Shown: positions 17,678-56,256, counted from the first letter of the stretch. The stretch: DNA of 62,213 bases from an uncultured Rickettsiales bacterium (GCA_964584075.1 CAZOYV010000006.1:1-62213), one strand, 5' to 3'. Numbers and translations are program-made. Notes: generated from the sequence alone by a model not told the origin.

Positions 17678-17695
17678 TTTCGTCCCGAAACGTAC
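17664..17695. promoter_or_regulatory. Candidate TetR operator
   Basis: Perfect inverted repeat GTACGTTT-N16-AAACGTAC overlapping the -10 region. A TetR gene lies in the downstream operon. Confidence 0.55.
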
Positions 17696-17734
17696 AAAAA
17701 GGCTGAATCGGATTCAGCCGACTGCGAGGGACCG

Positions 17735-18943
17735 ATGACGCAGGAAGTCCCCGAGGCTCCCCCGGAGATCGCACCGGAGAACGCACCGGAGGAGACCCCC
17801 GTCCGCACCGGGCGCGGACCGGTGGTCTGGATCGTCGTGGTGCTGACGATCGTGCTCGGCGTCGGGCTGATGGCCCGCACCGGCCAGGCGCTGTGGCTGC
17901 GGATGCGGCCGCTGCAGGACGTCGAGGTCCCGCCGGCCAAGGTCGAGGCCATCGCCGTGGCGCCCCGGACCTTCGAGTACACCGTGCCGATCTCCGGGAC
18001 GCTGCAGCCGATCCGCTCGGCGACGGTGTTCCCCAAGATGGGCGGCAAGGTCGTGGCCGTCGAGGTCCAGCTCGGCGACGAGGTGAACGCCGGCGACGCG
18101 CTGGCCCGCGTGGAGTCGCCGGAGTACTCGCTGCAGGCGCAGCAGGCCGAGGTCGGGCTGCAGATGGCCGAGGAGGCGGTGGAGCTCGCCGAGCGCTCGC
18201 TGCAGCGGCTGGAGGACGTGCGCGCGGAGGTGGGCACGCTGGGGGTCAGCGAGCAGGAGTACGAGGAGGCCCGGATCCAGGTGGAGGGCGCCCGCACCCA
18301 GCGGGACGTGGCCAGGCTCAACCGCGATCTCGCGCGCCAGGTGGTGCGCAACCACGTGATGACCGCCCCCTGCGACGGCCGCGTGACCAAGGTGCTGGCG
18401 CGGCTGGGCAACATGGTCGGCAACGAGTACCCGGCGTTCCAGATCGACGACACCTCGCAGCTGTTCCTCGACACCGCGGTGGACGCCGCCGCCCTCGGCG
18501 CGGTGGAGCGCGGCCAGCCGGTGCGACTGTGGGCCGAGGACCACGAGGACCGCGAGCTCCAGGGCACCGTCACCGCGGTGTCCACCAGCCTCGACGCCTG
18601 GACCCGCAGGGGGCCCGTCGAGATCACGGTGGAGGACCCCGGCGGCGTGATCGGCAACCTGTTCGCCCGCGGCGAGATCGTCACCGGCGTCGAGGAGGGC
18701 GCGGTGGTGCTGCCGCTGGAGGTGGTGCGCCGCACCGCCGACGGCGACTGGGTGCAGGTCGCCCGGGACGGCTACGTCGCCGACGTGCCGGTGGAGGTGG
18801 TCGGCGAGGCCGACACCGAGCTGTCGGTGCGGGGGGTCGCGTTCGGCGCGCTGGTGATCCTGCCCGGCGCGGAGTACCTGGCCGAGGGCGAACCGGTGGA
18901 CGTGGTGCGCGTGATCGGAGCGGACGCCGATGTGGCTCAGTGA
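17735..18943 (+). CDS. RND efflux periplasmic adaptor (membrane fusion protein)
   Basis: N-terminal TM. GGKVVAVEVQLGDEVNAGDAL lipoyl half, coiled-coil hairpin, TAPCDGRV and LPLEVV motifs. Confidence 0.93.
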   Translation: MTQEVPEAPPEIAPENAPEETPVRTGRGPVVWIVVVLTIVLGVGLMARTGQALWLRMRPLQDVEVPPAKVEAIAVAPRTFEYTVPISGTLQPIRSATVFPKMGGKVVAVEVQLGDEVNAGDALARVESPEYSLQAQQAEVGLQMAEEAVELAERSLQRLEDVRAEVGTLGVSEQEYEEARIQVEGARTQRDVARLNRDLARQVVRNHVMTAPCDGRVTKVLARLGNMVGNEYPAFQIDDTSQLFLDTAVDAAALGAVERGQPVRLWAEDHEDRELQGTVTAVSTSLDAWTRRGPVEITVEDPGGVIGNLFARGEIVTGVEEGAVVLPLEVVRRTADGDWVQVARDGYVADVPVEVVGEADTELSVRGVAFGALVILPGAEYLAEGEPVDVVRVIGADADVAQ

Positions 18944-21900: not shown

Positions 21901-22013
21901 TCGGCGGGCTGGTGGCCTCGACGCTGCTGACGCTGGTGGTCGTGCCGGTGGTCTACAGCTGGATCGAGGGGCTGCGCGAGCGGCTGGGGACGAGGAAGGA
22001 GGCGGCGCCATGA
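18930..22013 (+). CDS. RND efflux permease, AcrB/AcrD/AcrF family
   Basis: 1027 aa. MWLSDLAIKRP start. Proton-relay motifs IGILIDDAVV, TKNAIL and RLRPILMTT are intact. Confidence 0.97.
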   Translation: MWLSDLAIKRPAFTTIVALLLMVVGAMGYLRLSVDFLPKSDMPVFSVIVPYPGASPEQVEQQVVKPIEDQMTSISGLDDLYSYSREHVGIVVAAFDMGTDTALVGNEVRDAFYMARTELPDGVEDPIFTRFDPSAQPVMTWAVSTELSSLETRTLVEEVIKPEIEGIKGVGTIQIQGGEQREIQLELDLPKMAALRIPFLRVLQQVGYDIADIPGGNMEVGETRYSLRAKGTVDDLGELGDIMLQPLPSPIYLRDVATVVDGTVEQKTLARVGGKRAVTFDVIKEGGANTNAICEEVRAVMAELGHELPAGTVVFPVLDNSIIVDDMAHEMRLALILGALFAVLVVYVFMLDWRSTLISAVALPTSVITTFFFMWIAGFSLNVLSLLALSLAIGILIDDAVVVIEVIYRHMEAGEDALTAARNGTKEVGMAVMATTLSILAVFLPVGFVGGFIGQFFKEFGLTVAISVAVSLFIAFTVTPMLASKFGKLPDRENPGPFGRLQHRVMTGMEESYRGVLAWALDHGKLVSVTAVGLFAASLFLVGVVGFEFLPDYDRSRFEVDVRMSPATTLLAAEEKAIEVEQLLLAIEEVEDVYTVVGPDGETDWIHMTVLLPDKSERKRSVYEVMDEAREVVDVLPSVTTSVVDLPIVSGGAMGKAIEIEVRGDELEEIEQVATDIRLGMQQIPGTTGVETTYRPGKPELRLDVDRGKAGTAGLSVGQVGIASRMAVAGQVVGTYREGERAHDIRIRAREIDRTPRALMPNLLLLSPLPRPDDPWGQGTPVALQNVATLGYRTAPAVITRHDRQRYLEVSCDLSGRALSDVRDDIQAMIDGLGVPPGVDVKILGEVELMEDAAGSLTIALVLAVVFVFAVLVSQFESFLHPFTIMLSLPLAVVGAFLTLLLFGWSVSVVSMLGIILLMGLVTKNAILLVDRANQFRDEGVSIRESLLRAGALRLRPILMTTFAMILGMLPPALSTGSGSELRQPMAWPVIGGLVASTLLTLVVVPVVYSWIEGLRERLGTRKEAAP

Positions 22014-22612
22014 GCAAGCGCGGCGACGAGACGCGGGCGCTGCTGGTCGACTCGGCGCGGGCCGTGATCGAGAAGATCGGGCTGCGCAAGACGACGCTGG
22101 AGGACGTGGCCGCCGAGGCGCGGGTCAGCCGCTCGACGATGTACTACCACTTCGAGAGCAAGGGCGACCTGGTCACCGCGGTGATCGACCACCTGATCGA
22201 GGACCTCCAGGACAAGGTCGGCCAGGCCGACGATCCCGCGGTCCCGCCGGAGCAGCGGATGCTCCAGATCGTCGCGGCGCTGGGCGCCGAGATCCAGCGG
22301 CTGCTGATGCTCTACGAGGTGACCCGCGACGTGGCCGGCGAGCTGGTCCCGCGGGCCCAGAAGCGCATCGACCAGTTCCAGGCCTGGCACCTGGCGGTGC
22401 TCGCCGGCGTGATCCGGGACGGGGTCGCCGCCGGTGTGTTCGTGGTCGACGACCCGGAGCGCTTCGCGCGGACTCTGCAGCTGGCGTTCCAGGGCGTCTT
22501 CAACCCGGTGATCAACGACGACTGGGACCGCTTGCTGGAGGACGCCCAGGCGATGATGCAGGTCTTCCTGCGCGGCATCGCCGCCGAGCCCGGGAGGGGG
22601 GCGCCGTGCTGA
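22010..22612 (+). CDS. TetR/AcrR family transcriptional regulator (200 aa)
   Basis: KTTLEDVAAEARVSRSTMYYHFESKGDL HTH. ATGA overlap with the permease stop. Confidence 0.93.
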   Translation: MSKRGDETRALLVDSARAVIEKIGLRKTTLEDVAAEARVSRSTMYYHFESKGDLVTAVIDHLIEDLQDKVGQADDPAVPPEQRMLQIVAALGAEIQRLLMLYEVTRDVAGELVPRAQKRIDQFQAWHLAVLAGVIRDGVAAGVFVVDDPERFARTLQLAFQGVFNPVINDDWDRLLEDAQAMMQVFLRGIAAEPGRGAPC

Positions 22613-23988
22613 GCCGTGCTGCCAGGATGGCACTGGGGATGGTGCTGCTCGTCGCGCTGCCGGCCCAGGCGCGGGAGTACACCCTCGCCGAGGCGGTCCA
22701 CGCGGCGCTGGCCGGCAGCGACGAGGTCGAGATCGCGCGGGCCAAGACCGCCGCCGAGCAGGCCAAGGCCGACGAGGCGCTGCTGATGTTCTTCCCCAGC
22801 GCCACGCTCACCGGGGGCTACGCGCGGCTGGACACCGCGCCCTACACGGTGACCACCGTCGACATCGCGGACATGCTGCCCTCGAGCCTGGTGGACGACC
22901 CCCTGTTCGGCCAGTTCTTCGAGGACATCGAGCCGATGGAGTGGCGCATCGAGTTCGCCCGCCTGGACAACTTCCAGGTCCAGCTGCAGGCCGAGCAGAT
23001 CGTGTTCGCCGGCACCGGGCTGCACCGCCAGCGGGCGATGGCGATGGCCAACCTGCGCTCCGCCCGCGAGGAGGAGCGCGCGGTGGCGCACGAGGTGGTC
23101 TACCAGGTCGAGGAGCTGTTCTGGCAGCTGGCCTACGCCCGCCAGGCGATCGAGGTCACCGAGGCGGGGATGGAGACCGTCGACGCCTACGTGACGCTGC
23201 TGAACAAGCTGGTCGCGGTGGGGCTGGCCACCGAGGCCGACCTGCTCACCGCCCAGGTGCAGCAGGCCTCGCTGGAGCTCGACGCGCTCAAGGCGCGCCA
23301 GGGCGCCGCGCTGGCCGAGAACGCGTTCCGCGTGCTGGTCCACGCCCCGCCCGGCGAATCGATCGAGCTCGATCTCGTCGATGGGACCATGCCGATCGAG
23401 CTGGAGCTGGACCTGGACGCGCTGACCGAGATCGCCCGCGCCGAGCGCCCCGAGGCGCGGATGCTGGAGCAGCAGGGCCTCGCCGCCCGCCACGGGGCCC
23501 ACGCGGCGCTGTCCACCTGGCTGCCGGCGGTGGCGTTCCAGGCCAACATGTACTGGAAGAACCCGGACCGCGCGGTGGAGCCCAACTGGTACTGGTCGGG
23601 GGACCTCACGCTGGGGCTGCAGTGGACGCTGTGGGACCGCGGCCAGGCCATCTCGCGCCACCGCCAGGCCAGGGCCGGGCAGCGCCAGGTGGCGGCCTAC
23701 CAGCACCAGCTGCACGACGGCGTGCGGCTCCAGATCGAGCAGGCGCTGAGCCTGTACCGCGAGGCCGACGAGCAGCGCGCCGTGGCCCGGCGCGCCGAGG
23801 AGCTCGCCGAGAAGAGCCTGCAGCTCACCGAGCTGAACTTCCGCGAGGGCCTGGCACGCAATGTCGACGTGCTCGAGGCCCAGACGGCGCTGTCCAAGGC
23901 CCGCCTCGACGCCATCGGCGCCGAGGCGGCCTACCGCACCGCCGAGGCCGGCCTGCGCCGCGCCATCGGGCTGGACCTGGAGGACTGA
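22606..23988 (+). CDS. TolC family outer membrane efflux protein
   Basis: Signal peptide. TLAEAVHAALAGS, two helical repeats, and GLARNVDVLEAQ. Confidence 0.92.
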   Translation: MLSRAARMALGMVLLVALPAQAREYTLAEAVHAALAGSDEVEIARAKTAAEQAKADEALLMFFPSATLTGGYARLDTAPYTVTTVDIADMLPSSLVDDPLFGQFFEDIEPMEWRIEFARLDNFQVQLQAEQIVFAGTGLHRQRAMAMANLRSAREEERAVAHEVVYQVEELFWQLAYARQAIEVTEAGMETVDAYVTLLNKLVAVGLATEADLLTAQVQQASLELDALKARQGAALAENAFRVLVHAPPGESIELDLVDGTMPIELELDLDALTEIARAERPEARMLEQQGLAARHGAHAALSTWLPAVAFQANMYWKNPDRAVEPNWYWSGDLTLGLQWTLWDRGQAISRHRQARAGQRQVAAYQHQLHDGVRLQIEQALSLYREADEQRAVARRAEELAEKSLQLTELNFREGLARNVDVLEAQTALSKARLDAIGAEAAYRTAEAGLRRAIGLDLED

Positions 23989-24608: not shown

Positions 24609-26738
24609 TCAGGGCTCGTCGGGCTCGCGGGCCTCGTCCTCCGGCCGGGCCGCCGCGGGTCTGGCCGCCCCGCCCGCCTTCTTCCGATCCTTGCGCGGAG
24701 GGTACAGCCGCCGCGACATCTCGCGCAGCCGCCGCTGGGCGCGCCCCAGCACGGTCCTGGGCGGGTACTCGCCGTCCGCGTCGGGGACCCCGGCGCGGAT
24801 CCCGGTCAGGACCTCCATCGCCTGCTCGATGGTGGTCACCGGGACCACGCGGAACTGCCCCTCGCGACAGGCCTGGACGACCTCGTCGTCGAGGACCAGG
24901 TCCTCGATGTTGACCCGCGGGATGATCACCCCCTGGCGGCCGGTCAGGCCGCGGTCGCGGCAGGTGGCGAAGAACCCCTCGATCTTCTCGTTGACCCCGC
25001 CCACCGCGAGCAGGTCGCCGCGCTGACTCAGCGAGCCGGTCAGCGCGAAGCCCTGGCGCACCGGCGCGCCGGCCAGGTCGCTGAGGATCGCGGCCAGCTC
25101 CGAGGCCGCCGCGGAGTCGCCGTCGATCATCCCGTGGTTCTGCTCGCAGGTGATCATCGACACCACGCCGAGCGGGTCGCGCTGGCCGAAGCGGTGGCGC
25201 AGCAGGCCGACGAGCAGGAACACGCCCTTGTCGAACGTCTTGCCGCTGAGCTTGGCCTCGCGCTCGATGTTGATCACGCCCTCGCGGCCCACCGCGGTGG
25301 TGGCCGTGATCCGCGTCGGCGCCCCGTAGCGCAGCCCGTCGACGGTGTAGACCAGCAGGCCGTTGACCGTGCCCACCTCGGTGCCGTCGGTACGGACCCG
25401 CAGGCGGTGCTTGCGCAGCCGCTCGCGGTGGCGCCGCTCCCCGCGGTCGAGGCGCCAGCGCCGCTGTCGCAGCGCCCGGTCGACGTCGCCGGCGGTGATG
25501 CTGGCGTGCCCCTCGTCCCCGGCGACCAGATCCGCCTGGGCGACGCGGTCGGCGAGCTCCCCGAGGCGTGCCGAGATCCGGCCGCGGCCCTCCACGTCGC
25601 GGACCTGCTCCTCGACCAGCCGGGCGAGGCCGTCGCGGCGCACGTGGCGCAGCCCCTCGGCGCGGCACCGGTGGGAGACGAACGCGGCCAGCCGGGCGCC
25701 GGTCTCGTCGTCGTAGGCCATGTCCGGCTTGCCGTCGGCGAGCAGCCCGAAGACCCGCCGCCCGGCCGGCTCGATCAGCGGCCCGAAGCGCGCGGTCTGC
25801 GTCCCGACCACCACCACGCGCAGCGCCAGCGGGATCGGGTCCGGCCGGACGTCGGCCATCGCCGGCGTCGCGGTGCCGGGGACGGCCGCCGGCGCCAGCT
25901 CGCGGCGGGACAGCGTCGCCAGCAGGCGGCGCACCAGCGTGCCGTCGGCGAGCAGCTCGTCGGCGTCGATCACGCACACCCCGCCGTCGGCCTCGAGCAG
26001 CGCCCCGCCGGCCAGCTGCGCCAGGCCGGGGGGGCCGTCGCCGGGCGGGGCGTCCACGGCGCCGAACAGCGTCCGGTGGTCGGCGACCGGCGCCCACACC
26101 ACCGGCAGCGCGCCCTCGCCCCAGCGCCTCCCGTCGCGGATCAGGTGCCCCCGGTAGCGCTCGGTGCAGCCGATCCGCGCCTCGTCGTCGGGCTCGTCGG
26201 TGCTGGTCAGCAGCGGCACGTCGCGCAGCGCCTGCTCGCGGAGCCGGACCAGGTGCCGCTTGACCTCGGGGCCGTCGCCGCGCGCCACCAGGGTCGCCAC
26301 CTGGGCCCGCACCGCCTTGCGGCCCTCGCGGCGGGTGGCGCCGCCCAGCAGGTTCATCGCGCGGGCGAACGCGTCGAGGGCGTCCACCAGCGCGCGACCG
26401 CGGCCCGCCGGCAGCGAGATCCGCCGCGGCCGCCGCGGGTCGTCGAAGCGCTCGACGTACAGGTGGTCGAGCACCTCGCGGGGCCGCGCCTCGGCCAGGC
26501 ACTGGCGCAGCAGCGTCCGCATCCCGGTGCCCGCCGCGCCGCGCAGCAGCAGGTGGTGCGTCGGGCTGCGCAGCCGCAGGGCGAGCTCCACCGTGGCGCG
26601 GGTCCGCGGGTCGCCGAGCCAGCGGTCGTCGGGAGCCACGCTGGCCGTGGACGGGCCGGGCAGCGAGCCGGGATCACAGCGCCAGCGCAGGTGATCGGGG
26701 TGCAGGGCGGTGAGGCGGTCGCGGGGTCCCGGCGGCAC
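24609..26738 (-). CDS. Lon-like protease (S16; LonC/YcbZ-like AAA_32 + Lon_C)
   Basis: LRWRCDP N-terminus, INIERE, catalytic DGDSA (Ser) and GGVNEKIEGFF (Lys). Confidence 0.9.
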   Translation of the reverse strand: MPPGPRDRLTALHPDHLRWRCDPGSLPGPSTASVAPDDRWLGDPRTRATVELALRLRSPTHHLLLRGAAGTGMRTLLRQCLAEARPREVLDHLYVERFDDPRRPRRISLPAGRGRALVDALDAFARAMNLLGGATRREGRKAVRAQVATLVARGDGPEVKRHLVRLREQALRDVPLLTSTDEPDDEARIGCTERYRGHLIRDGRRWGEGALPVVWAPVADHRTLFGAVDAPPGDGPPGLAQLAGGALLEADGGVCVIDADELLADGTLVRRLLATLSRRELAPAAVPGTATPAMADVRPDPIPLALRVVVVGTQTARFGPLIEPAGRRVFGLLADGKPDMAYDDETGARLAAFVSHRCRAEGLRHVRRDGLARLVEEQVRDVEGRGRISARLGELADRVAQADLVAGDEGHASITAGDVDRALRQRRWRLDRGERRHRERLRKHRLRVRTDGTEVGTVNGLLVYTVDGLRYGAPTRITATTAVGREGVINIEREAKLSGKTFDKGVFLLVGLLRHRFGQRDPLGVVSMITCEQNHGMIDGDSAAASELAAILSDLAGAPVRQGFALTGSLSQRGDLLAVGGVNEKIEGFFATCRDRGLTGRQGVIIPRVNIEDLVLDDEVVQACREGQFRVVPVTTIEQAMEVLTGIRAGVPDADGEYPPRTVLGRAQRRLREMSRRLYPPRKDRKKAGGAARPAAARPEDEAREPDEP

Positions 26739-26747
26739 GGGGCGCCC

Positions 26748-28724
26748 TCACTCCTCGAGGTCCGCCGAGATCGGCTTCTTCTCCCCCGGGGCGAGGGTCA
26801 CGGAGATGGTGCGCTCGGCCTCCAGCGGGGGGCACACCAGCTTGACGGTGTGGTCCCCGGGCTCGACCTCGAGGTTGCCGATCGGGGTCTGGCCGACCTT
26901 GCGCCCGTCGACGTAGACGTCGGCCCACGGCGTGGCGTTGATCGTCAGGTAGGCGGGCTCGACCTTCTCGGGCAGCTTCTCCAGCGTGGCGCGCACCACG
27001 ACGGTGCCCTCGGTGGGGAACGTCCCGCTGGCGGTGCCGTCCCTGTAGCCCTCGAGGCTGAAGGTCGCGGAGTATCGGGTGCCGGGCGCGCCGGCGTCGA
27101 AGCGGTAGGGCGAGCTGCGCCCCTGGGGCCCGCCGGTGATGCTGACGGTCGCGCCCGGCGGGCTGCTGCGGAACACCAGCGCTGGCGGGCCGGGCTCCGC
27201 GGGGGTGGCCGCCTCCGTCGGGGTCTCGGGCTCCACCGCCTCGGTGGCGACCTCCTCCCGCTGGAGCGACACCTTCAGCCGGAAGCGCTCGCCGGCCTCG
27301 ACCTGGAACTCGTCCTCGAAGGGCAGGAAGCCCTCCTTGCGCACCGTCAGCGTGTACCTGTGGTCGGGCTCGAGGTCCTCCTGGGTCGCCCCGATCGGCT
27401 TGCCGTCCAGCAGGATCTCGGCGTCCCGGGCCTCCGGCGGGGCGATCTCCAGCACCAGCGTGCCCGTGGTGGGGCCCAGCGGCTCGATCACCTCGGGCTC
27501 GGGGGCCAGGATCACGAACTTGACCAGCGCCCCGACGCCGCACAGCACCGCGAGCACCGCCGCGATCCAGACCAGCCCCGGGATCTTCCGCCTGCGGGGC
27601 TCGGCGTCGGGCTCGACCTCCTCCTCGTCGTCGATCGTGTCGACCTCTTCCTCGAAGTCGAGCTCGAGGTTCTCCTCCATCGAGGCCAGCGCGCTGGCGG
27701 CCTTGCGCGCCGCCTCGAGCCGGATGCCCTCCTGCTCGCGGTCCTGGGCGTACAGCTCGGAGAACCAGTCCTGGAACTCCAGCTGCATCTCGCTGACCGT
27801 GGCCGGCTTGATGTACTCCTCGAGCTCGTGGCGCATCTCCTCGGCGTCCTGGTAGCGGTTCCAGGGCCGCGGGTTCAGCGCGCGCTGCATGATGTGCTCG
27901 AGGGGCCGCGGGACCCCGGGGTTGAGCTGCTTGATGTCCGGGATGTCGCCGTTGCGGATCCGCTCCAGCGTCTTCAGCGGGGTCTCTTCCTTGAACAGCC
28001 GCGCCCCGGCGATCATCTCCCACAGGCAGATGCCGCAGGAGAACACGTCGGAGCGCTGATCCACCGCCTTGCCCTGGGCCTGCTCGGGGCTCATGTACTC
28101 GAACTTGCCCTTGAGCACCCCCTCCTCGGTGTTCTCGAACTGGGACTTGCTGGCCTTGGCGATCCCGAAGTCGGCCAGCTTGATGTGGCCGTCGTAGCTG
28201 ATCAGGATGTTGCTCGGCGAGACGTCGCGGTGGACGATCTCGAGGTCGTTGCCGGCCTCGTCCTTCTTGGTGTGGGCGTAGTACAGCCCGCGGCTCATCT
28301 CGTGGGCGACGTAGGCGGCGAACTGCATCGGCAGGCGCTTCTGCTGCTGCTCCAGCGTCCGCATCAGGATCTTCAGGTCCTTGCCGTAGACGCCCTCCAT
28401 CGCCAGGAAGTAGTGGTCGCGGATCTTGCCGAAGTCGTAGACCTGGACGATGTTGGGGTGCTGCAGCTGGACCGTCAGCTTGGCCTCGTCGACGAACATG
28501 CCGACGAACTCCTCGTTGACGGTCAGGTGCGGCAGGATCCGCTTGATCACCAGCTCCTTCTCGAACCCCCCGTGCCCGAAGGTGCGCGCGCGGAAGACCT
28601 CGGCCATGCCGCCGACGGCGATGCGGTCGATCAGGAAGTACTTGCCGAACGGCTCCGGCTCGAAGCGCAGCTTGGTCGAGGGCGTGTCCGCTTCGGACGG
28701 GTTGCTCGGCTGCTGCGACTCCAC
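26748..28724 (-). CDS. Membrane Ser/Thr protein kinase with extracytoplasmic PEGA-like domains
   Basis: GTG start after an AGGAG RBS. IAVGGMAEVF, VIKRI, HRDVSPSN, LADFG, GKFEYMSPEQ. TM segment, then PWADVYVDG..GQTP PEGA. Confidence 0.95.
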   Translation of the reverse strand: MESQQPSNPSEADTPSTKLRFEPEPFGKYFLIDRIAVGGMAEVFRARTFGHGGFEKELVIKRILPHLTVNEEFVGMFVDEAKLTVQLQHPNIVQVYDFGKIRDHYFLAMEGVYGKDLKILMRTLEQQQKRLPMQFAAYVAHEMSRGLYYAHTKKDEAGNDLEIVHRDVSPSNILISYDGHIKLADFGIAKASKSQFENTEEGVLKGKFEYMSPEQAQGKAVDQRSDVFSCGICLWEMIAGARLFKEETPLKTLERIRNGDIPDIKQLNPGVPRPLEHIMQRALNPRPWNRYQDAEEMRHELEEYIKPATVSEMQLEFQDWFSELYAQDREQEGIRLEAARKAASALASMEENLELDFEEEVDTIDDEEEVEPDAEPRRRKIPGLVWIAAVLAVLCGVGALVKFVILAPEPEVIEPLGPTTGTLVLEIAPPEARDAEILLDGKPIGATQEDLEPDHRYTLTVRKEGFLPFEDEFQVEAGERFRLKVSLQREEVATEAVEPETPTEAATPAEPGPPALVFRSSPPGATVSITGGPQGRSSPYRFDAGAPGTRYSATFSLEGYRDGTASGTFPTEGTVVVRATLEKLPEKVEPAYLTINATPWADVYVDGRKVGQTPIGNLEVEPGDHTVKLVCPPLEAERTISVTLAPGEKKPISADLEE

Positions 28725-28799
28725 GCTGCGCGCTCCTGGAGGGTCGATCTCTTGGCCCCCGGCCGAGGGCTCGGAGAGGCAAGGGATTTCAGGGAGTCG

Positions 28800-28829
28800 A
28801 GTATAGGGAGAACGCTCCGCGAGGGTCAA
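28800..28829 (-). promoter_or_regulatory. Candidate sigma70 promoter for the kinase-Lon pair
   Basis: Minus strand TTGACC-N18-TATACT. Confidence 0.6.
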
Positions 28830-28918
28830 GGCAGCAGCGGGGCCGCGCTATACACCTCGGATGGGGCGAGGCTACAATGGGCCTCGGGCCCATGCGAGCG
28901 AGCGCGAGGAGCGGACGG

Positions 28919-32298: not shown

Positions 32299-32366
32299 CC
32301 CCTCCGCCCCGCCCGTGACCGTGACAGCCGGGCAGCCCCGTGCGATCATCGGTCGCGGGGGTGACC

Positions 32367-34022
32367 ATGCGACCCAGCCTCGCGATCGTGGTCTCGCTGC
32401 TGCTCGGGATCGCCCTGCCCGCGACCCCGGCCGGCGCCAAGCCCGTCCCGGTGCCCGACGCGCCGTCGTGCGCCTACGCCCAGGTCAGCGCGGGCTCGTT
32501 CCACACCTGCGGCCTGCGCGGGGACGGGCACGTCGCCTGCTGGGGGGCCAACGACTACGGCCAGTCCACGGCCCCCGACGGCCAGTTCACCCAGATCAGC
32601 GCCGGCATCTGGCACACCTGCGGGGTCCACACCGACGGCTCGGTGGCGTGCTGGGGCTGGAACGAGTACGGCCAGGCCAAGCCCCCCGGCGGGGCGTTCA
32701 CCCAGGTCAGCGCGGGCTACGGCCAGACCTGCGGCCTGCGCTCCGACGGCAGCCTGATCTGCTGGGGCGCCGACACCGCCGGCGAGGCCAGCCCCCCTGC
32801 GGGGCGCTTCCGCCAGATCAGCGCCGGCCACTACCACACCTGCGGCGTGCAGCAGGACGGCACCGTCGCCTGCTGGGGGGACGACGAGTACGGGCAGTCG
32901 CGGGCCCCCGAGGGCCGCTTCGCGTTCGTCAGCGCCAGCGACGAGCACACCTGCGGCGTGCGCGAGACCGGCGCCGTGGAGTGCTGGGGCGCCGAGGAGT
33001 ACGGCCGGACCCGCGCCCCCGGCGGGGCGTTCACCCAGGTGGAGGCCGGCCCGTGGCACAGCTGCGGCCTGCTGGACGACGGCACCGTCGACTGCTGGGG
33101 CGGCAACTGGGCCGGCGAGGCCCGGCCCCCGGGCGGCGTGTTCGAGCAGGTCACGGTCGGCAGCGGCCACGCCTGCGGGGTCCGCACCGACGGCACGATC
33201 GAGTGCTGGGGCGACGACGTCTACGGCCAGTCCCGCCCGGTGCGCGGTGCGTTCCGCGCGGTGGCCACCGGCGGGACCCACATCTGCGGCCTGCGCAGCG
33301 ACGGCACGGCGACCTGTTGGGGCGGCTACCTGTCCGGCGAGCAGCCCCCGCCCTACGGCCAGTTCGTCCAGCTCAGCGCCGGCGACAAGCACGGCTGCGG
33401 GACCCGCGAGGACGGCTCGCTGGACTGCTGGGGCGCCAACCACTTCGGCGAGGCCGATCCCCCCGACGGGGTCTACACCCAGGTCAGCGCCGGCGGCAGC
33501 CACTCCTGTGCCGTCCGCGCCGACGGCTACGTGGTCTGCTGGGGCGCCAACGGCGCCGGCGAGTCCCGCCCCCCGACCGCGACGTTCACCCAGGTCGACG
33601 CCGGCGACCGCCACACCTGCGGCGTCCGCACCGACGGCCTGGTGTGGTGCTGGGGCGCCAACGACAGCGGCCAGTCCCGCGCCCCGGCGTCCGCCTTCAA
33701 GGCCGTCTCCGCCGGCGGCGGCCACTCCTGCGGCGTGCGGATCGACGGCACCCTGGAGTGCTGGGGCGCCAACGACCTGGGCGAGGCCTCCCCGCCCCCC
33801 GGCACGTTCACCACCGTCTCCGCCGGCACCGGCCACTCCTGCGGCGTCCGCGACGACGGCGCCGTGCTGTGCTGGGGCGCCAACACCTTCGACCAGTCGG
33901 TCAACCCCCGCGGCGCGTTCACCACCGTCTCCGCCGGCGGCGCCAAGTCCTGCGGCCTGCGCACCGACGGCTCGCTGGAGTGCTGGGGCGTCCTCGTCCG
34001 CCCGCCGCGCTGCACGCCGTAG
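32367..34022 (+). CDS. Secreted RCC1-like repeat protein (14 repeats of ~37 aa)
   Basis: Signal peptide. 14 copies of FxQVSAGxxHTCGxRxDGxxxCWGxNxxG. Confidence 0.9.
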   Translation: MRPSLAIVVSLLLGIALPATPAGAKPVPVPDAPSCAYAQVSAGSFHTCGLRGDGHVACWGANDYGQSTAPDGQFTQISAGIWHTCGVHTDGSVACWGWNEYGQAKPPGGAFTQVSAGYGQTCGLRSDGSLICWGADTAGEASPPAGRFRQISAGHYHTCGVQQDGTVACWGDDEYGQSRAPEGRFAFVSASDEHTCGVRETGAVECWGAEEYGRTRAPGGAFTQVEAGPWHSCGLLDDGTVDCWGGNWAGEARPPGGVFEQVTVGSGHACGVRTDGTIECWGDDVYGQSRPVRGAFRAVATGGTHICGLRSDGTATCWGGYLSGEQPPPYGQFVQLSAGDKHGCGTREDGSLDCWGANHFGEADPPDGVYTQVSAGGSHSCAVRADGYVVCWGANGAGESRPPTATFTQVDAGDRHTCGVRTDGLVWCWGANDSGQSRAPASAFKAVSAGGGHSCGVRIDGTLECWGANDLGEASPPPGTFTTVSAGTGHSCGVRDDGAVLCWGANTFDQSVNPRGAFTTVSAGGAKSCGLRTDGSLECWGVLVRPPRCTP

Positions 34023-34136: not shown

Positions 34137-34248
34137 GCAGCGCAGTGAGGGGTCGGATCGTGGCTGAAGCCACTGGACCACCATCCCTGTGGATTCCTCG
34201 TCGACCGGCTCTTCACCGGGTTACCCTGGTGGACGGGAGGGATGCGAG

Positions 34249-35253
34249 ATGCGCTACCGGCGTGCCCTGCTCGTCCTGGCTTCCATCTTGCCGGTGGCGG
34301 GCTGTGTCGATCCCCCGGACGACGACGCCACGACGACCGACGACGACACGGTGGTCGACGACCTCGATGACGACGACTCGGGTGATGACGACACCGTGGC
34401 CCCCACCTTCGGCTGCGAGTCGCAACCGGGATTCGACTTCGCGGAGGCCGTCCTGATCGAGGGCGGTGTGTTCTCCATGGGCTCCGACGTGCAGACGCCC
34501 TGGCCCGATCACGCCCTGTGGTTCGGCGGCCTCCAGCATGCCTACGGAGACGAGACCCCGGCGCACGACGTGGACCTGAGCCCGTTCTGCATCGAGCGGT
34601 ACGAGGTCACGCTGGAGCGCTACGAGGCCTGTGTCGACCAGGGGATCTGTGATCCGCTGGGATTCCAGTGGAACCAGAAGGATGGGGTCGACACCTGGAT
34701 CAACCACTACCCGGAGGAGTGCTGGGAGGACCTGTCGCTCTGCCTCCACTGGCCCGTCAACGCCAAGCACCGCGCACAGGCGGCGTCGTTCTGCGACTGG
34801 GCTGGCGGCCGGCTGTGTACGGAGGCGGAGTGGGAGCGCGCCGCCTCGGGCCCGGGGCCGGACAAGCCCACGTACCCCTGGGGTGATCAGCCCCCGGACG
34901 AGGATCTCGCGAATGTCTACGAGTACGGCGATCCGGCGGAGACGATCGTGATCGATCGGGTCGACGCCCACCCCGCGGGCGCGTCCGTAGAGGGCGTGTT
35001 CGACCTGACGGGGAACGTCTTCGAGTGGGTCTCCGACTGGGTCGCCCCCTACGATGTCGAGCCCGGTGGGCTCCCCGCCGTCGATCCGATCGGACCGCCC
35101 CGTGGACGGCACCGCATCGCCCGCGGGGGATGCGGGTTGGCCGTGATGGCCCACGAGATCACGACCAGGATGACCGCCGATCCCCTGTTCGACGGCGGGT
35201 GAGTGGGGATCCGGTGCTGCCGTGACGCGGTGCCCCTGGAGGAAGGTGAGTGA
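34249..35253 (+). CDS. FGE-sulfatase/SUMF1-family lipoprotein with an in-frame TGA at 35200-35202 (candidate Sec, or a nonsense allele ending at 35202)
   Basis: Lipobox VAGC. FSMGS, DETPAHDV, IERYEVT, WPVN, GGRLCTEAEWERAA, YPWG and DLTGNVFEWV motifs. After the TGA the frame continues VGIRCCRDAVPLEEGE-TGA. Confidence 0.8.
35210..35240 (+). promoter_or_regulatory. Candidate bacterial SECIS-like hairpin
   Basis: Folded by eye: TCCGG/CTGGA lower stem, GC/GC pairs, bulged T, GCCG/CGGT upper stem, loop TGACG starting 21 nt after the UGA. Confidence 0.4.
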
Positions 35254-35650: not shown

Positions 35651-37723
35651 CTACAGCTGGGTGCGCCAGGCGGCGACGTCGACGCCCTTGCGGGTCAGGG
35701 CGCCGGTGGGGCACATCTCGCACAGCTTGTCCCAGCCCTCGCCGGGCAGGGTGTCGGCGAGCTTGCGCAGCAGCGGCGGCATCACGCGGGCGGTGAAGCC
35801 GCGGCCCTCGAGCGCCAGGGCGTTGTTGCCCAGCAGCTCCTCGCAGGCGCGGACGCAGGTGGCGCACATGATGCACTTGTGGCCCTCGTACAGCACGTGG
35901 GGGTGGCTGTCGTCGACCAGGTAGGCGCGGTGGTCGCCGGCGAAGCGCTGCGGGTCGACCATGTACTCGCTGCCGTACCGCTTGATCTTGCAGTCGTTGA
36001 CGGCGCGGCAGCCGCAGGCGAGGCAGCGCTCGGCCTCGGCCTGGGCCGTGGCCTCGGTGAACCCGGTCTCGACCTCGTCGAACGTCGTGCGGGCCCGCTC
36101 CACCTCGATCTCGGGCATCTCGGCGCGCGGCCGCTCGTCGAAGCCGGCCACCACCTCGGGCGGGATCTCGGGGAGCGCGCCCATCATGTGGCGGTACAGC
36201 GCCGGGTTGCCGATCACCTTCTCGCCGCGGACGTACTGGTCGATCGAGAACGCGGCGAGGTGGCCGTGGCCCGCCGCGCGGACCGCGATGTCGGCGCCGG
36301 TGAAGCAGTCGCCGCCGGTGAACACGTCGGGCAGCGCGGTCTGCAGCGTCTTGTCGTCGGCCTCGATGCTGTTCCAGCGAGTCAGGCCCAGCCCGGTGTC
36401 GGCGGTGCCGAAGGTGCTCACCCGCTGACCGATCGCGGCGATCGCGTTGTCCACCTGGATTCCGTACTCGCTGCCCTCCTGGGGCACCGGCCGGCGGCGG
36501 CCGGAGGCGTCGGGCTCGCCGAGCTCCATCTTGATGCAGGTGATGTCCAGCGCGTCGCCGTTCTTCTCGATCTTGATCGGCGCGGCCAGCAGCTGGATCT
36601 CGACGCCCTCGTGCTCGGCGGCGTCGATCTCGGGCTGGAACGCCGGCATCTCGGTGCGGGTCCGGCGGTACAGGATGAACACCTTCTCGGCGCCGCAGCG
36701 CAGCGCGGTGCGGGACGCGTCGATGGCGGTGTTGCCGCCGCCGACGACCATCACCCGCTTGCCGATCTTGGTGCTCTCGTCGCGGCTGACCTCGCCGAGG
36801 AACCCGATCCCGGACAGCACGCCGGGCAGGTCCTCGCCCTCGCAGCGCATCGTCGAGGCCTCCTGGGCCCCGAGGCCGAGGAACACCGCGTCGCTGCGGT
36901 CGCGCAGCTCCTGCAGCGACACGTCGCGGCCCATCTTGACGCCGTACTCGAAGGTCACGCCCATCCGCTCCAGGACGCTGACCTCCTTGTCGATCACGTG
37001 GCGCGGCAGGCGGTACGACGGGATCCCCCAGCGCATCATCCCGCCGGGGGCCTCGGCCGCGTCGATGACGTGCACCGAGTGGCCCTTCTGGCGCAGGTAG
37101 AACGCGCAGGCGACCCCGGCCGGGCCGGCGCCGACGACCGTGATCCTCTTGCCGGTGTCGGCCTCGCACTCCGGCACGTAGTCCGACCCGGCGTTCTGGT
37201 CCACGTCGCTGGGAAACCGCTTGAGGCTGCAGATCGCGATGGGGTCGTCGACCAGCCCGCGGCGGCACGCGTCCTCGCAGGGGCGCGGGCAGACGCGGCC
37301 CAGCGACGCCGGCTGGGGCAGCTGCTGCTTGATCAGCCGCAGCGCGTCGTCGTAGCGGCCCTTGGCGATGTAGTCGACGAACCCGGGGATGTCGATGTTG
37401 CACGGGCACGTGGTGTGGCACGGGCCGTAGCAGTCCCCGAAGTGGTCGCTGAACAGCAGCTCGAGGCACATCCGGCGGGCGCCGCGGATGTCCTCGCTGT
37501 CGGTCGTCACGACCATGTCGTCCATCACCGGGGTGGCGCACGACGGCACCAGGTTGGGCCGCCCCTGCACCTGCACCACGCACAGGAAGCACGAGCCGTA
37601 GGGCTTGAGGTCCTCGTGGTGGCACAGGGTCGGGATCTCGATGCCGACGCTCTTGGCCGCGTCCAGGATGGTCCCACCCTCGACCTCGACCGGCTTTCCG
37701 TCAATCGTGAGCTTGATGGTCAT
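35651..37723 (-). CDS. NfnA/BfuA-like subunit: N-terminal [2Fe-2S], GltD-like FAD/NADPH oxidoreductase core, C-terminal [4Fe-4S] motif
   Basis: IPTLCH..CFLC..SC, PCHTTCPCNID, LGRVCPRPCEDAC, VVGAGPAG, VVGGGNTAIDA, CLACGC and CIMCATCVRAC. Confidence 0.88.
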   Translation of the reverse strand: MTIKLTIDGKPVEVEGGTILDAAKSVGIEIPTLCHHEDLKPYGSCFLCVVQVQGRPNLVPSCATPVMDDMVVTTDSEDIRGARRMCLELLFSDHFGDCYGPCHTTCPCNIDIPGFVDYIAKGRYDDALRLIKQQLPQPASLGRVCPRPCEDACRRGLVDDPIAICSLKRFPSDVDQNAGSDYVPECEADTGKRITVVGAGPAGVACAFYLRQKGHSVHVIDAAEAPGGMMRWGIPSYRLPRHVIDKEVSVLERMGVTFEYGVKMGRDVSLQELRDRSDAVFLGLGAQEASTMRCEGEDLPGVLSGIGFLGEVSRDESTKIGKRVMVVGGGNTAIDASRTALRCGAEKVFILYRRTRTEMPAFQPEIDAAEHEGVEIQLLAAPIKIEKNGDALDITCIKMELGEPDASGRRRPVPQEGSEYGIQVDNAIAAIGQRVSTFGTADTGLGLTRWNSIEADDKTLQTALPDVFTGGDCFTGADIAVRAAGHGHLAAFSIDQYVRGEKVIGNPALYRHMMGALPEIPPEVVAGFDERPRAEMPEIEVERARTTFDEVETGFTEATAQAEAERCLACGCRAVNDCKIKRYGSEYMVDPQRFAGDHRAYLVDDSHPHVLYEGHKCIMCATCVRACEELLGNNALALEGRGFTARVMPPLLRKLADTLPGEGWDKLCEMCPTGALTRKGVDVAAWRTQL

Positions 37724-37739
37724 CGTCTCGTCCCTTCCT

Positions 37740-39524
37740 TCACACCACCACGACCGAGTTGAAGCGACACACGTCCCGGCACACGCCGCAGGAGATGCAC
37801 TTGTCCTGGTCGATGACGTGCAGCTCCTTCTTCGTGCCGGTGATCGCGTCGGTCGGACAGGGCTTCACGCAGGCCATGCAGCCGGTGCAGGAGTCGTCGA
37901 TCACGAAGGTCGTCAGATCCCGGCAGCGGCCCGCCGGGCACTTGTGGTCGTGGATGTGGGTCAGGTACTCGTCGCGGAAGTACTTCAGCGTGGTCAGCAC
38001 CGGGTTGGGCGCCGTCTGGCCCAGGCCGCACAGGCTGGTGCGCTTGATCCGGTCGGCGAGCTCCTCGAGCAGGTCCAGGTCCGACTCCTGCGCCTGGCCC
38101 TTGGAGATCTTGGTCAGGATCTCCAGCATCCGCTTGGTGCCGATCCGGCAGAACGTGCACTTGCCGCACGACTCCTTCTGGGTGAAGTCCAGGAAGTAGC
38201 GCGCGATGTCGACCATGCACGAGGTGTCGTCCATCACGACCATGCCGCCGGAGCCCATGATCGCGCCGGTCTTGGTCACCTCCTCGTAGTCGACCCGGGT
38301 GTCGAACAGCTCCGCCGGGACGCAGCCGCCCGACGGACCGCCCATCTGGACCGCCTTGATCGTGCGGCCGCTGTCGGAGCCGCCGCCGACGTCGAACACC
38401 ACCTCGCGCAGGGTCAGCCCCATCGGGACCTCGACCAGTCCGCCGCGCTTGATCCGGCCGGCCAGCGCGAACACCTTGGAGCCCTTGCTCTTCTCGGTGC
38501 CCTTGGCCGCGAACGCCTCGCCGCCCTCGAGGATGATCCACGGCACGTTGGCCAGCGTCTCGACGTTGTTGATGTTGCTCGGGTAGCCCCACAGCCCCTT
38601 CTGGGCCGGGAACGGCGGCCGGAACCGCGGCATCCCGCGCTGGCCCTCGATGGAGGCCATCAGCGCCGTCTCCTCGCCGCAGACGAACGCCCCGGCGCCC
38701 TCCTTGACCTTGATCTCGAAGTCGAAGCCGGTGCCCATGATGTCCTTGCCGAGCAGGTTGCGCTCGGTGGCCTGCTCGATCGCCATGTTCAGGCGCTTGA
38801 CGGCCAGCGGGTACTCGGCGCGGCAGTAGACGTAGGCGTGGTGGGCGCCGATCGCGACGCCGGCGATCGCCATGCCCTCGAGCACCGCGTTGGGATCGCC
38901 CTCGATCGTGGAGCGGTCCATGAACGCCCCGGGGTCGCCCTCGTCGGCGTTGCAGATCACGTACTTCTTGTCGGCCTGCGACCCGCGGGCGAAGGTCCAC
39001 TTCAGCCCGGTGGGGAAGCCGGCGCCGCCGCGGCCGCGCAGCCCCGAGATCTTGACCTGGTCGATGACCCACTCGGGGCCCTCGGCGATGGCCTTCTCGA
39101 GGGCCTTGTAGCCGCCGACGGCGATGTAGTCCTCGATGTTCTCGGGGTCGATCTTGCCGCAGTGGCGGAGCACGATCTGCTCCTGCTTGGCGTAGAACGC
39201 CCCCTCCTCGTCCTCGGGGTCCTCGGGGTGGAACATCCACTTGTCCACCGGCTCCCCGCCGACGATGTGGCTCTTGACGATCTTCCTGGTCTTCCCGGCG
39301 TTGAGGTTGCCGTAGTAGTAGACCTCGCCGGCCTTGTCGCGGACCTCGATGATCGGCTCGGCGTGGCAGTTGCCCATGCAGCTGGTGATCCCCAGCTCCA
39401 CGTCCACGCCCGCCTCCGCGAGCTCTTCCTTCAGGATCGTCTGGATCTTGTCGGCGCCGGCGGCGATGCCGCAGGTCCCGAGACCCACGATCACCTTGGT
39501 GACTTCACTTGCGCTGGGCTCCAT
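37740..39524 (-). CDS. HydB/NuoF-like (BfuB) NADH/FMN subunit with an N-terminal thioredoxin-like [2Fe-2S] domain and C-terminal 2x[4Fe-4S]
   Basis: GLRGRGGAGFPTG, NADEGDPGAFMDR, GAGAFVCGEETAL, SCGKCTFCRIG, CPAGRC, CTGCMACVKPCP and CISCGVCRDVC. Confidence 0.93.
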   Translation of the reverse strand: MEPSASEVTKVIVGLGTCGIAAGADKIQTILKEELAEAGVDVELGITSCMGNCHAEPIIEVRDKAGEVYYYGNLNAGKTRKIVKSHIVGGEPVDKWMFHPEDPEDEEGAFYAKQEQIVLRHCGKIDPENIEDYIAVGGYKALEKAIAEGPEWVIDQVKISGLRGRGGAGFPTGLKWTFARGSQADKKYVICNADEGDPGAFMDRSTIEGDPNAVLEGMAIAGVAIGAHHAYVYCRAEYPLAVKRLNMAIEQATERNLLGKDIMGTGFDFEIKVKEGAGAFVCGEETALMASIEGQRGMPRFRPPFPAQKGLWGYPSNINNVETLANVPWIILEGGEAFAAKGTEKSKGSKVFALAGRIKRGGLVEVPMGLTLREVVFDVGGGSDSGRTIKAVQMGGPSGGCVPAELFDTRVDYEEVTKTGAIMGSGGMVVMDDTSCMVDIARYFLDFTQKESCGKCTFCRIGTKRMLEILTKISKGQAQESDLDLLEELADRIKRTSLCGLGQTAPNPVLTTLKYFRDEYLTHIHDHKCPAGRCRDLTTFVIDDSCTGCMACVKPCPTDAITGTKKELHVIDQDKCISCGVCRDVCRFNSVVVV

Positions 39525-39569
39525 CGTTGCTTGCCCTCTCGCTTGCGGTTGAAGGAGACCGGGGGCGGA

Positions 39570-40052
39570 CTACGCGTCCGCCTGCTTCCCGGCGCCGTAT
39601 TCCTTGACCAGGACGTCCTCGGCCTTGGTCCGGTTGAGCTTCCCGTGGGTGCTGTCGTTGACCATGATCACGGGGGCCAGGCTGCAGCAGCCGACACAGG
39701 CCACCGACGACAGCGTGAACCGCATGTCCGCGGTGTTGCCGCCGTCCTGGACCTCGAGCAGCTCCTCGAGCGCCTCGGTGATCCCCTCGGCGCCGCTGAC
39801 GTGGCAGGCCGTGCCCTTGCAGACCTTGATCAGGTTCTCGCCGACCGGCTCGAGGCGAAACTGGGTGTAGAACGTGACCACCCCGTAGATCTGCGAGGCC
39901 GTGATGTCGGTGTGCTCGCAGATGTACTCCATCGCCTCGATGGGGACGAACCGGAACTGTTCCTGGATGCCCTGCAGCAGGGGGATCGCGGCCTCCGGTC
40001 CGGTGCCGTAGTGGTCGATGAGCAACGCCACCTTGCCGAGATCGATGTCCAT
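39570..40052 (-). CDS. HydC/NuoE-like (BfuC) [2Fe-2S] subunit
   Basis: Start MDIDLG after AGAGGA. LLQGIQ, VVTFYTQF, VCKGTACHV and ACVGCCSLAP. Confidence 0.93.
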   Translation of the reverse strand: MDIDLGKVALLIDHYGTGPEAAIPLLQGIQEQFRFVPIEAMEYICEHTDITASQIYGVVTFYTQFRLEPVGENLIKVCKGTACHVSGAEGITEALEELLEVQDGGNTADMRFTLSSVACVGCCSLAPVIMVNDSTHGKLNRTKAEDVLVKEYGAGKQADA

Positions 40053-40121
40053 GCGGCTGTTCCTCTCGCTGTGGTGAGATCGCACTCCAGGGGCCATGCC
40101 CCCTGGAGCGTGGGGACAACC

Positions 40122-40150
40122 TTTATAGAGGGGGCGTGGGGGCCCGTCAA
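40122..40150 (-). promoter_or_regulatory. Near-consensus sigma70 promoter of the Bfu-type operon
   Basis: Minus strand TTGACG-N17-TATAAA. Confidence 0.75.
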
Positions 40151-40191
40151 CCGGACCTGCAGCGGTCGTAAGATAGCGAAATACAAGGTGA

Positions 40192-41253
40192 TTAGTCTGG
40201 GCGAGTTTCCGCGCCGGGTGACGGCGCGGCGGGGGCCGCCGGAAGGCGCCGTCCCGTGCGCGCGGCGTCGTGCTGGAACTGGGGCCACGGGACGTCGGCG
40301 GGACCCCCCGCGCCGCCGTCGAAGGCGTACAGGCTCCAGTCCCACGACGCAGCGAAAACGGTGCCGTCGTCGGCCAGCGCGACGGAGGAGCGCACGTCGC
40401 GCCCGACCCGCTCCTGCCACGCGATCTCCCCGCTGTCGAGGGCCAGGGCGTAGACGCGGTTGTCGTTGCAGCCGACGAAGCACACGCCGCCCGACGCGAT
40501 CGCCGGGGTCCCGTAGACCCCGTCGCCGAGCTTGCGCTTCCAGCGCAGCCCGCCGTCCAGCGCCAGCCCGTAGACCCAGCCGGCGCGGGTGGCGGCCAGC
40601 ACCAGGTCGTCGCCCACGGCGCAGGAGGCGTAGACTTGGCCCTCGACCGGCGTGTTCCACGCCACCTTGCCGTCGCGCACGGCGTAGGCGTAGCCGTCCC
40701 ACGCGCCGTAGTACACGGTGCCGTCGGCGCCCACCGCGGCGGCGGCGACCACCGGCTCGCGGGCCACCGTCTCGACCCGCGTCCCGTCGGTGCCGTACAG
40801 CCCCTCGCCGGCGAGCAGCACGGCGTCCCCGGCGCAGACCGGCGAGGCGCTGATCAGGTCCGAGACGGTGACCTGGGCCAGCAGCCGGCCCTCGGGCGTG
40901 ACCGCGCGCAGGGCGCCGTCGTCGGCGCCGAACCACAGCTGGCCCGCGGCGTCGACGCACGGCGTGGTCATCACCGGCGCGCCGACCCCCAGCCGCCAGC
41001 GCTCGGCGCCGTCGGGGTCCAGCGCCCGCACGACGCCGTCGTACGAGCCGAACACCACCAGGCCGTCGGGGTGGACGCACGGCGCGGCGTCCACCGGGCC
41101 GTCGGTCTCGACCGTGAAGCGGAGCGACCCCTGGGCGTCCACCGCGTACAGCTTGCCGTCGCGGCAGCCCACGTAGACCGTCCCGTCGGGGCCCACCGCC
41201 GGGGAGCACGCCAGCATCGAGCCGGCCTTGAACGACCACCGCAGCCGGCCCAT
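40192..41253 (-). CDS. PQQ-binding-like (BamB-type) beta-propeller protein without an obvious signal peptide
   Basis: Repeated SPAVGPDGTVYVG..DG.LYAV...G..RW. C-terminal WPQFQHDAARTG. Confidence 0.88.
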   Translation of the reverse strand: MGRLRWSFKAGSMLACSPAVGPDGTVYVGCRDGKLYAVDAQGSLRFTVETDGPVDAAPCVHPDGLVVFGSYDGVVRALDPDGAERWRLGVGAPVMTTPCVDAAGQLWFGADDGALRAVTPEGRLLAQVTVSDLISASPVCAGDAVLLAGEGLYGTDGTRVETVAREPVVAAAAVGADGTVYYGAWDGYAYAVRDGKVAWNTPVEGQVYASCAVGDDLVLAATRAGWVYGLALDGGLRWKRKLGDGVYGTPAIASGGVCFVGCNDNRVYALALDSGEIAWQERVGRDVRSSVALADDGTVFAASWDWSLYAFDGGAGGPADVPWPQFQHDAARTGRRLPAAPAAPSPGAETRPD

Positions 41254-56245: not shown

Positions 56246-56256
56246 GGCGTGTCTCC

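Follow-up and report, generated by a model that had tools for sequence, protein, structure and literature searches.

Does a UGA codon that closes an annotated reading frame stop translation, or is it decoded as selenocysteine (Sec)? The question is raised by a gene for a putative exported lipoprotein with a formylglycine-generating enzyme (FGE)-sulfatase domain, encoded on a 62,213-nucleotide stretch of DNA, hereafter the window, from an uncultured Rickettsiales bacterium (GCA_964584075.1, CAZOYV010000006.1:1-62213). The open reading frame (ORF) annotated at 34249-35202 ends with ...RIARGGCGLAVMAHEITTRMTADPLFDGG immediately before the TGA at 35200-35202. The original prediction, made from the sequence alone, was correct in that this ORF stops after ...DPLFDGG and that the same frame then stays open to a second TGA at 35251-35253. 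From the comparison of homologous sequences described below, we consider it highly probable that the first UGA is decoded as selenocysteine (Sec318).

The UGA column is occupied by TGA or Cys in the homologues compared

We searched 5.8 billion proteins with the read-through sequence as the query and aligned the best 50 homologues (alignment A1). The search recovered a coherent family with 41-91% identity. Among these 50 proteins, 36 stop exactly at the TGA column (...FDWG) and 12 extend as FDWG-C-[VI]G[IF]RCC, with a Cys at this column. At the DNA level, a TGA occupies the column in all 14 distinct DNAs retrieved for members of the truncated type (the window itself, L161, L162, L165, L083, L002, L004, L082, L171, L003, L166, L167, L169 and L174). 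In each of them it is followed in frame by [VI](T)GIRCC and 6-10 further residues before the true stop codon, which is TAA or TAG in 8 cases and TGA in 6. The three Cys-form genes for which DNA was checked (L001, L170 and L177) carry TGC or TGT instead. Neither Trp, Gly, Arg nor Asn was found at the recoded column among the homologues compared. Thus, the column contains either TGA (14/14 DNAs) or Cys (12 proteins), as selenocysteine predicts, and pairs of Sec- and Cys-containing homologues are a criterion by which selenoprotein families are defined (PMC12013277).

A variant Sec form is that of L169 (3322-3366; protein P0042), in which the motif reads F-D-E-W-U-V-T-G-I-R-C-C, with 1 residue fewer before the TGA and 1 more after it; its true stop is TAG and its downstream hairpin is displaced by one codon. 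Two other proteins, P0052 and P0053, which end with ...DYW and ...SEW, respectively, also show this variant. A separate search of 1.84 billion representative proteins was dominated by multi-domain FGE-sulfatase proteins and was uninformative as to the size of the family.

A lone in-frame stop near the 3' end of a gene resembles a fresh nonsense mutation, and the TGA could in principle mark a pseudogene or an error of sequencing or assembly in the window. However, independent assemblies provide 14 distinct sequences with this TGA, the most distant of them at about 40% protein identity, and L161, 91% identical to the window copy, retains the TGA, the extension and the hairpin. This recurrence excludes an error or a private nonsense mutation, the outcome that the original prediction had asked to be checked, and we assign a negligible probability to the pseudogene or error explanation.

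The sequence beyond the UGA evolves as protein-coding sequence

To the read-through protein, the FGE-sulfatase domain PF03781 matches with an E value of 3.6e-34 and 119 bits, compared to the gathering cut-off of 23.3. The match runs to profile position 255 of 255, so the domain is complete only with read-through. The motif R292-G-G-C295-G is present and lies 25 residues from GIRC; both this spacing and the need to decode the UGA for a whole domain had been predicted and are confirmed. A 91%-identical homologue (P0001, 317 aa) was called from the equivalent ATG. The N-terminus, read by eye, contains MRYRRALLVLASILPVAG-C19, which matches the lipobox pattern [LVI][ASTVI][GAS]C, and a hydrophobic N-terminus followed by G-C is kept across the family alignment. 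A scan for promoters and terminators around the gene (34249-35253) yielded no candidates.

We compared the mean pairwise identity at codon positions 1/2/3 in 30-nt blocks of 12 Sec forms. It was 0.80/0.90/0.56 in the 30 nt 3' of the TGA, above the 0.60/0.63/0.56 of the 30 nt 5' of it, and dropped to 0.27/0.32/0.29 in the 30 nt 3' of the true stop. This pattern indicates that the extension is under protein-level purifying selection, which ends at the second stop codon. In a neighbour-joining tree, the window copy belongs to a large, deep Sec clade. A Sec-type member called at the protein level, P0038, is nested within the Cys clade, and the Sec member P0042 from L169, in which the TGA was verified in DNA, branches early. 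The positions of these two proteins imply at least two switches between Sec and Cys.

If the TGA were an ordinary stop, the protein would end with ...DPLFDGG and the conservation downstream would have to be non-translational, for example that of a conserved 3' RNA element. This would be in line with the gene callers, which end the ORF at the TGA in every database entry, with TGA being the commonest stop in the genome, and with a local RNA fold that is unremarkable. However, conservation is higher in the 30 nt past the TGA than in the 30 nt that precede it, the third codon position is relaxed, and the conservation ends at the second stop. Moreover, the extension peptide is the canonical Pfam domain end, Cys-form homologues translate the same motif, and a product terminated at the TGA would be without the last core strand and without the partners of the invariant Cys182 and Cys190. 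Termination at this codon is therefore very unlikely indeed.

Reassignment of the genetic code was considered as well and rejected: TGA is the commonest stop codon and closes most of the confident, Pfam-supported genes of the window, so the code is standard. Together, the TGA/Cys pattern, the coding extension, the tree and the standard code rule out both a reassigned code and a defect of this one copy, whether by sequencing error, private nonsense mutation or decay to a pseudogene.

A SECIS-like hairpin overlaps the conserved tail codons

The original prediction had described a hairpin with a bulged U and a loop UGACG starting 21 nt after the UGA, resembling bacterial selenocysteine insertion sequence (SECIS) elements of the E. 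coli fdhF type. A downstream hairpin is indeed present, but it has no bulged U, and its loop is CGUGAC rather than UGACG and starts 18 nt after the UGA. It begins 11 nt after the UGA and consists of 8 bp, including 3 G-U pairs, with an energy of -10.6 kcal/mol. Its 5' arm is formed by the Cys323-Cys324 codons UGCUGC and two bases upstream of them, and its 3' arm by the Ala-Val(-Pro) codons. The consensus for bacterial SECIS (bSECIS) elements specifies a loop of 3-9 nt, a stem of 4-16 bp, a G in the first two loop positions, a distance of 16-37 nt from the UGA and a minimum free energy of at most -7.5 kcal/mol (PMC13188914), and the window hairpin falls within this consensus in every respect.

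Similar hairpins are found in the other Sec forms. In the 13 that were scored, the stem is 5-9 bp, the loop 3-8 nt and the spacing 18-20 nt, and the loop has a G as its first or second base, followed by G or U; the bare stem alone reaches -7.5 kcal/mol in 9 of the 13. The fourteenth, L174, was inspected by eye without scoring and has a 5-bp stem as in the others, with the loop CGUGCU. The hairpin is retained despite a codon deletion (L003, loop GGC) or insertion (L169) in the tail, and its inner 5 bp are formed in 55/55 cells of alignment A3. No hairpin anchored on the Cys-Cys codons was found in any of the three Cys-form genes (L001, L170 and L177), a comparison limited by these controls being only three in number and phylogenetically clustered. 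The protein tails of the two forms differ too, with CC-x-x-A-[AV] in Sec forms and CC-[AS]-x-P-[VL] in Cys forms, as would be expected if the Ala codon GCN were retained for pairing with UGC.

The selenocysteine machinery and the case against decoding

A full-length selB gene is located on contig L166, 7 kb upstream of the Sec-form gene; its product scores 315 bits with TIGR00475 (cut-off 242) and has the SelB winged-helix domains. The same contig carries, as a neighbour, a gene with a MYXO-CTERM sorting signal, which points to Myxococcota and agrees with the PEGA kinases, MopE motifs and TPR proteins of the window, the G+C content of which is 72%. Some of the GC-rich contigs of metagenome-assembled genomes that carry the family (L002, L004, L013, L019, L022 and L037) are titled 'uncultured Enterobacteriaceae bacterium' or 'Rickettsiales', which looks like placeholder or wrong taxonomy.

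Several observations weigh against selenocysteine decoding. Pfam and NCBIfam scans of approximately 40 ORFs of the window found no selA, selB or selD, and a search for tRNA-Sec with ARAGORN was negative both for the window and for 14 family loci. As the window is a genome fragment of 62 kb, the absence of sel genes from it carries little weight; there are no tRNA genes in it at all. The window copy is itself divergent, with FDGG instead of FDWG and RGGCG instead of RGSCFF. As regards the hairpin, four of the 13 scored Sec forms have a bare stem weaker than -7.5 kcal/mol, and no relevant Rfam match was obtained, either for the whole window at the gathering threshold or around the site at E values up to 10. 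The local fold is no stabler than dinucleotide shuffles (z = -0.04), nor is the hairpin stabler than synonymous recodings (fraction of recodings at least as stable, about 0.03-0.78), which implies that the structure is encoded at the amino-acid level. Covariation in alignment A3 was not significant, and pair counting was indistinguishable from shuffles, because the inner pairs, formed by the Cys and Ala codons, either do not vary or change in just one of the two bases. Given the shuffle and recoding results, the hairpin by itself is weak evidence. That homologues conserve the TGA is not a matter of chance.

Could the UGA be read through without selenocysteine, by low-efficiency insertion of Trp, Cys or Arg by near-cognate or suppressor tRNAs? 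The scans of the window found no Sec machinery, and the hairpin lacks covariation support, both of which would fit such a process. Nevertheless, where homologues have an amino acid in place of the UGA, it is Cys and no other, which is the mark of Sec/Cys pairs (PMC12013277), the window hairpin conforms to the bSECIS criteria, and selB is present on the contig of one member (L166). Furthermore, it would be odd for a whole deep clade to depend on leakiness for an essential strand of the core. We thus regard read-through of this kind as very unlikely.

Decoding as selenocysteine would proceed as follows. SelB and tRNA-Sec would be guided to the UGA by the hairpin at 35213-35234; the ribosome would then read on across the last core beta-strand, V-G-I-R-C-C, and reach the real stop 16 codons later. 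The product would be a 333-residue exported lipoprotein with the FGE-sulfatase fold and Sec318 encoded by UGA 35200-35202. In the family as a whole, most members would contain Sec and a minority Cys, within the motif F-D-W-G-[U/C]-[VI]-G-[IF]-R-C-C.

Conserved cysteines suggest a partner for the proposed Sec318

The AlphaFold2 model built on alignment A1 (pLDDT 82.6, pTM 0.82) shows the GIRC segment as a strand at 323-326 (block pLDDT 97); in this model, GIRC is the last core beta-strand of the fold. The top Foldseek matches are FGE structures (TM 0.59-0.71), and profile matches to FGE structures in the PDB have E values of about 1e-37. In the profile alignment to human FGE (1Y1E), Cys295 corresponds to Ser333, Sec318 to Asn360 and Cys323 to Cys365, and the invariant Cys182 corresponds to Cys218. 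In FGE, Cys218 and Cys365 form a structural disulfide, and the active-site residue Ser333 is one of those whose mutation alters activity (PMC4505483). The hidden Markov model alignment to 1Y1E confirmed the earlier remark that the catalytic Cys motif of true FGE is absent: Cys336 aligns with a Thr, and Cys341 falls in a 4-residue deletion. The protein is thus not a formylglycine-generating enzyme.

Two pairs of cysteines stand out among the FGE-sulfatase domains that we fetched. Where the recoded column holds Cys or Sec, 27/29 domains have the RGG-Cys (Cys295), versus 8/488 of the remaining domains, a co-occurrence that supports the suggestion, already made in the original prediction, of the Cys of RGGC as a possible partner of the recoded residue. 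Cys190 (RL-C-TEAEW) and Cys324, the second Cys of RCC, co-occur in 31/31 versus 0/268 domains (P0001-P0267), which suggests that some FGE-sulfatase domains, well beyond the Sec/Cys family, have an additional disulfide. A second, unrelated FGE-sulfatase subfamily, included in the Cys295 count, has the RGG-C and column cysteines in the form RGGCYKY...C[VI]GFRC (L069, L146, L147 and L159). The pair of RGG-C and column Cys seems to have arisen, or to have been kept, more than once.

From these alignments, Cys323-Cys182 would be the canonical FGE structural disulfide and Cys324 would pair with the family-specific Cys190. With 182-323 and 190-324 so assigned, Sec318 and Cys295 are left as a pair by elimination. 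They would form either a redox-active selenenylsulfide or a thiolate/selenolate two-ligand metal site near the former FGE pocket. We give the Sec318-Cys295 pairing and an oxidoreductase role an even chance.

Genomic neighbourhood of the family

The genes around family members offer candidate electron partners (features of the window are listed in Table 1). A SagB-type nitroreductase domain is fused to five Cys forms (P0023, P0027, P0032, P0039 and P0044), and a SagB-type gene adjoins four Sec loci, downstream in L003 (3832-4668), L083 (3889-4719) and L167 (10917-11708), and upstream on the minus strand in L082 (1555-2868). The SagB-type genes beside Sec forms are 63-74% identical to one another. 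The Nuo/GltD-like cluster of the window has a homologous module (38-54% identity) in L001, where it follows the Cys-form gene co-directionally (2584-5548). In L177 (8951-11732), a gene for a VKOR-thioredoxin/DsbA fusion begins within the Cys-form gene. In the same locus, genes for NifU_N and for a cysteine-desulfurase-like aminotransferase come after the VKOR fusion, and Nitro_FeMo-Co and ParA/Fer4 genes lie upstream.

As read from the gene order, these neighbours would suit a redox enzyme dependent on a partner for electrons, yet they are heterogeneous. Most likely, the protein would be an extracytoplasmic Sec-dependent oxidoreductase working with a flavoprotein; a SagB-type dehydrogenase is fused or adjacent in its relatives. 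Two points speak against this assignment: no SagB gene lies next to the window copy, and the flavoprotein partners are of cytoplasmic type, whereas the lipoprotein looks exported. A literature search for an FGE-SagB system returned nothing usable.

Proteins with the MopE 'putative metal-binding motif' are encoded near family genes in L161 (3793-4605), L174 (11095-13416) and L167 (1409-2215), directly downstream in L161 and in L174-176, and in the window at 2524-4632 and 60336-61604. The recurrence of this motif could be a hint of copper, or the motif could simply be common in these bacteria.

Table 1. Features of the window, with coordinates counted from its first nucleotide
Feature	Position	Strand	Details
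Candidate full-length selenoprotein gene	34249..35253	+	334 codons; ATG 34249, proposed Sec-UGA 35200-35202, stop TGA 35251-35253
Shine-Dalgarno-like GGGAGGG	34235..34241	+	7 nt 5' of ATG 34249; sequence reading
Putative lipoprotein signal peptide MRYRRALLVLASILPVAGC, lipobox VAG-C19	34249..34305	+	read by eye
FGE-sulfatase domain PF03781, residues 65-325	34441..35223	+	spans the UGA; Pfam, profile positions 3-255 of 255
Cys190 and Cys324 codons	34816-34818 and 35218-35220	+	window positions of the co-occurring cysteines
Cys295 codon (R-G-G-C)	35131..35133	+	proposed Sec318 partner; nearly invariant in the family; aligns with human FGE Ser333
In-frame UGA, codon 318, probable selenocysteine	35200..35202	+	TGA in 14/14 family DNAs, Cys in 12 homologues
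C-terminal extension VGIRCCRDAVPLEEGE, probably translated	35203..35250	+	in frame up to TGA 35251-35253; codon-position identity
SECIS-like hairpin	35213..35234	+	5' arm GGUGCUGC 35213-35220, loop CGUGAC 35221-35226, 3' arm GCGGUGCC 35227-35234
RCC1 protein, 11 repeats (CWG.N..GQ), signal-like N-terminus	32340-34022	+	upstream gene; also upstream of the 91%-identical homologue in L161 (750-2444)
NuoE-like / NuoF-like / 2Fe-2S-GltD-like cluster	35651-40853	-	downstream, convergent
RND efflux set: HlyD-type adaptor, AcrB-type pump (1032 codons), outer-membrane factor	17660-23985	+	complete
Ser/Thr kinase with PEGA domains beside LonB-like protease	24609-28847	-	
dapB-dapA-dapF	54580-57207	-	

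Significance and comparison with known systems

Gene callers truncate every Sec-form member that we found, so that 36 of the 50 closest database clusters stop short of the final core strand and lack two conserved cysteines; these entries would be put right once the Sec codon is recognised. If the assignment is true, the prokaryotic selenoproteome gains one family, and selenium a place in a fold familiar from Cu and Fe enzymes that activate O2 (FGE, EgtB and SenA). It would also point to the use of selenium in an exported protein of GC-rich, probably Myxococcota-like bacteria. The natural Sec forms, Cys forms and flavoprotein fusions are ready material for studying an uncharacterised branch of the FGE superfamily.

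The proposal of a Sec-containing exported lipoprotein outside the familiar selenoprotein families is supported by the TGA/Cys column, the extension and a comparison with the existing catalogues. The 2026 inventory lists 119 prokaryotic selenoprotein families and subfamilies with domain identifiers (PMC13188914), and its Table 1 has no PF03781, FGE or sulfatase entry among them. An FGE-type selenoprotein family is unmentioned in the deep-Sep, BSepDB and Global Ocean Sampling papers (PMC12013277, PMC13326102 and PMC2398784), the BSepDB family supplement lying outside this comparison. A full-text literature search for a selenoprotein with FGE, SUMF1, DUF323 or PF03781 found nothing relevant, and the read-through protein reaches no model of NCBIfam release 20. 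On balance we favour a broader interpretation, in which this gene would be the founding case of a selenoprotein family that is so far uncatalogued and the first to have the FGE (C-type-lectin-like) fold. Sec318/Cys295 would take the place of the Cu-binding Cys pair in the pocket that FGE uses, the protein would work with SagB- or NuoEF-type flavoproteins, either as an extracytoplasmic oxidoreductase dependent on selenium or as a Cu(I)-selenolate oxidase, and the SECIS would be hard-wired in the Cys-Cys-x-x-Ala tail codons.

With FGE itself (SUMF1; 1Y1E, 6S07, 6MUJ and 2Q17), the protein shares the PF03781 fold, the RGG...GFRC signature and the disulfide Cys182-Cys323, equivalent to Cys218-Cys365. 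It differs from FGE in that the Cu(I)-binding Cys336/Cys341 are absent and the Cys295/Sec318 pair is conserved instead, and in having a lipoprotein signal and extra cysteines. A C-terminal FGE-sulfatase domain is also found in EgtB/OvoA/SenA/OvsA, PvdO, GldK/PorK, CalU17 and ToxD. Among these, PvdO and GldK/PorK are extracytoplasmic too, PorK/GldK being lipoproteins, and the sulfoxide/selenoxide synthases SenA and OvsA act on selenium substrates. Unlike EgtB/OvoA/SenA, the present protein has no DinB-type iron-binding N-terminal domain, and the match is limited to the C-terminal FGE part. None of the NCBIfam cut-offs is reached (SenA 62 vs 420, EgtB 48 vs 360, PvdO 24.8 vs 500 and GldK 28 vs 350). 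Sec is not known from the EgtB/OvoA/SenA/OvsA, PvdO, GldK/PorK, CalU17 or ToxD families.

Selenocysteine near the C-terminus has precedents. Mammalian thioredoxin reductase ends in a C-terminal GCUG. The Cys-Cys-COOH selenoprotein SaoC and the KCU-star family, listed in PMC13188914, resemble the present family in having Sec close to the C-terminus beside Cys residues, presumably in a selenenylsulfide. In contrast to such C-terminal Sec centres, Sec318 would open a buried core strand rather than lie in a flexible tail, and its proposed Cys partner is 23 residues upstream.

The closest parallel in mechanism is provided by bacterial selenoprotein genes such as fdhF/FdhA and the families of PMC13188914, which have in common with the present family an in-frame UGA, Cys homologues, a stem-loop inside the ORF just downstream, a small apical loop with G[G/U] 18-20 nt after the UGA, and selB in at least one carrier genome. 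The differences from catalogued selenoprotein genes are that Sec here would lie only 12-16 residues from the C-terminus and that the SECIS would be made from the conserved Cys-Cys...Ala-Val tail codons. Recoding by this mechanism is already known in bacteria; the family is uncatalogued.

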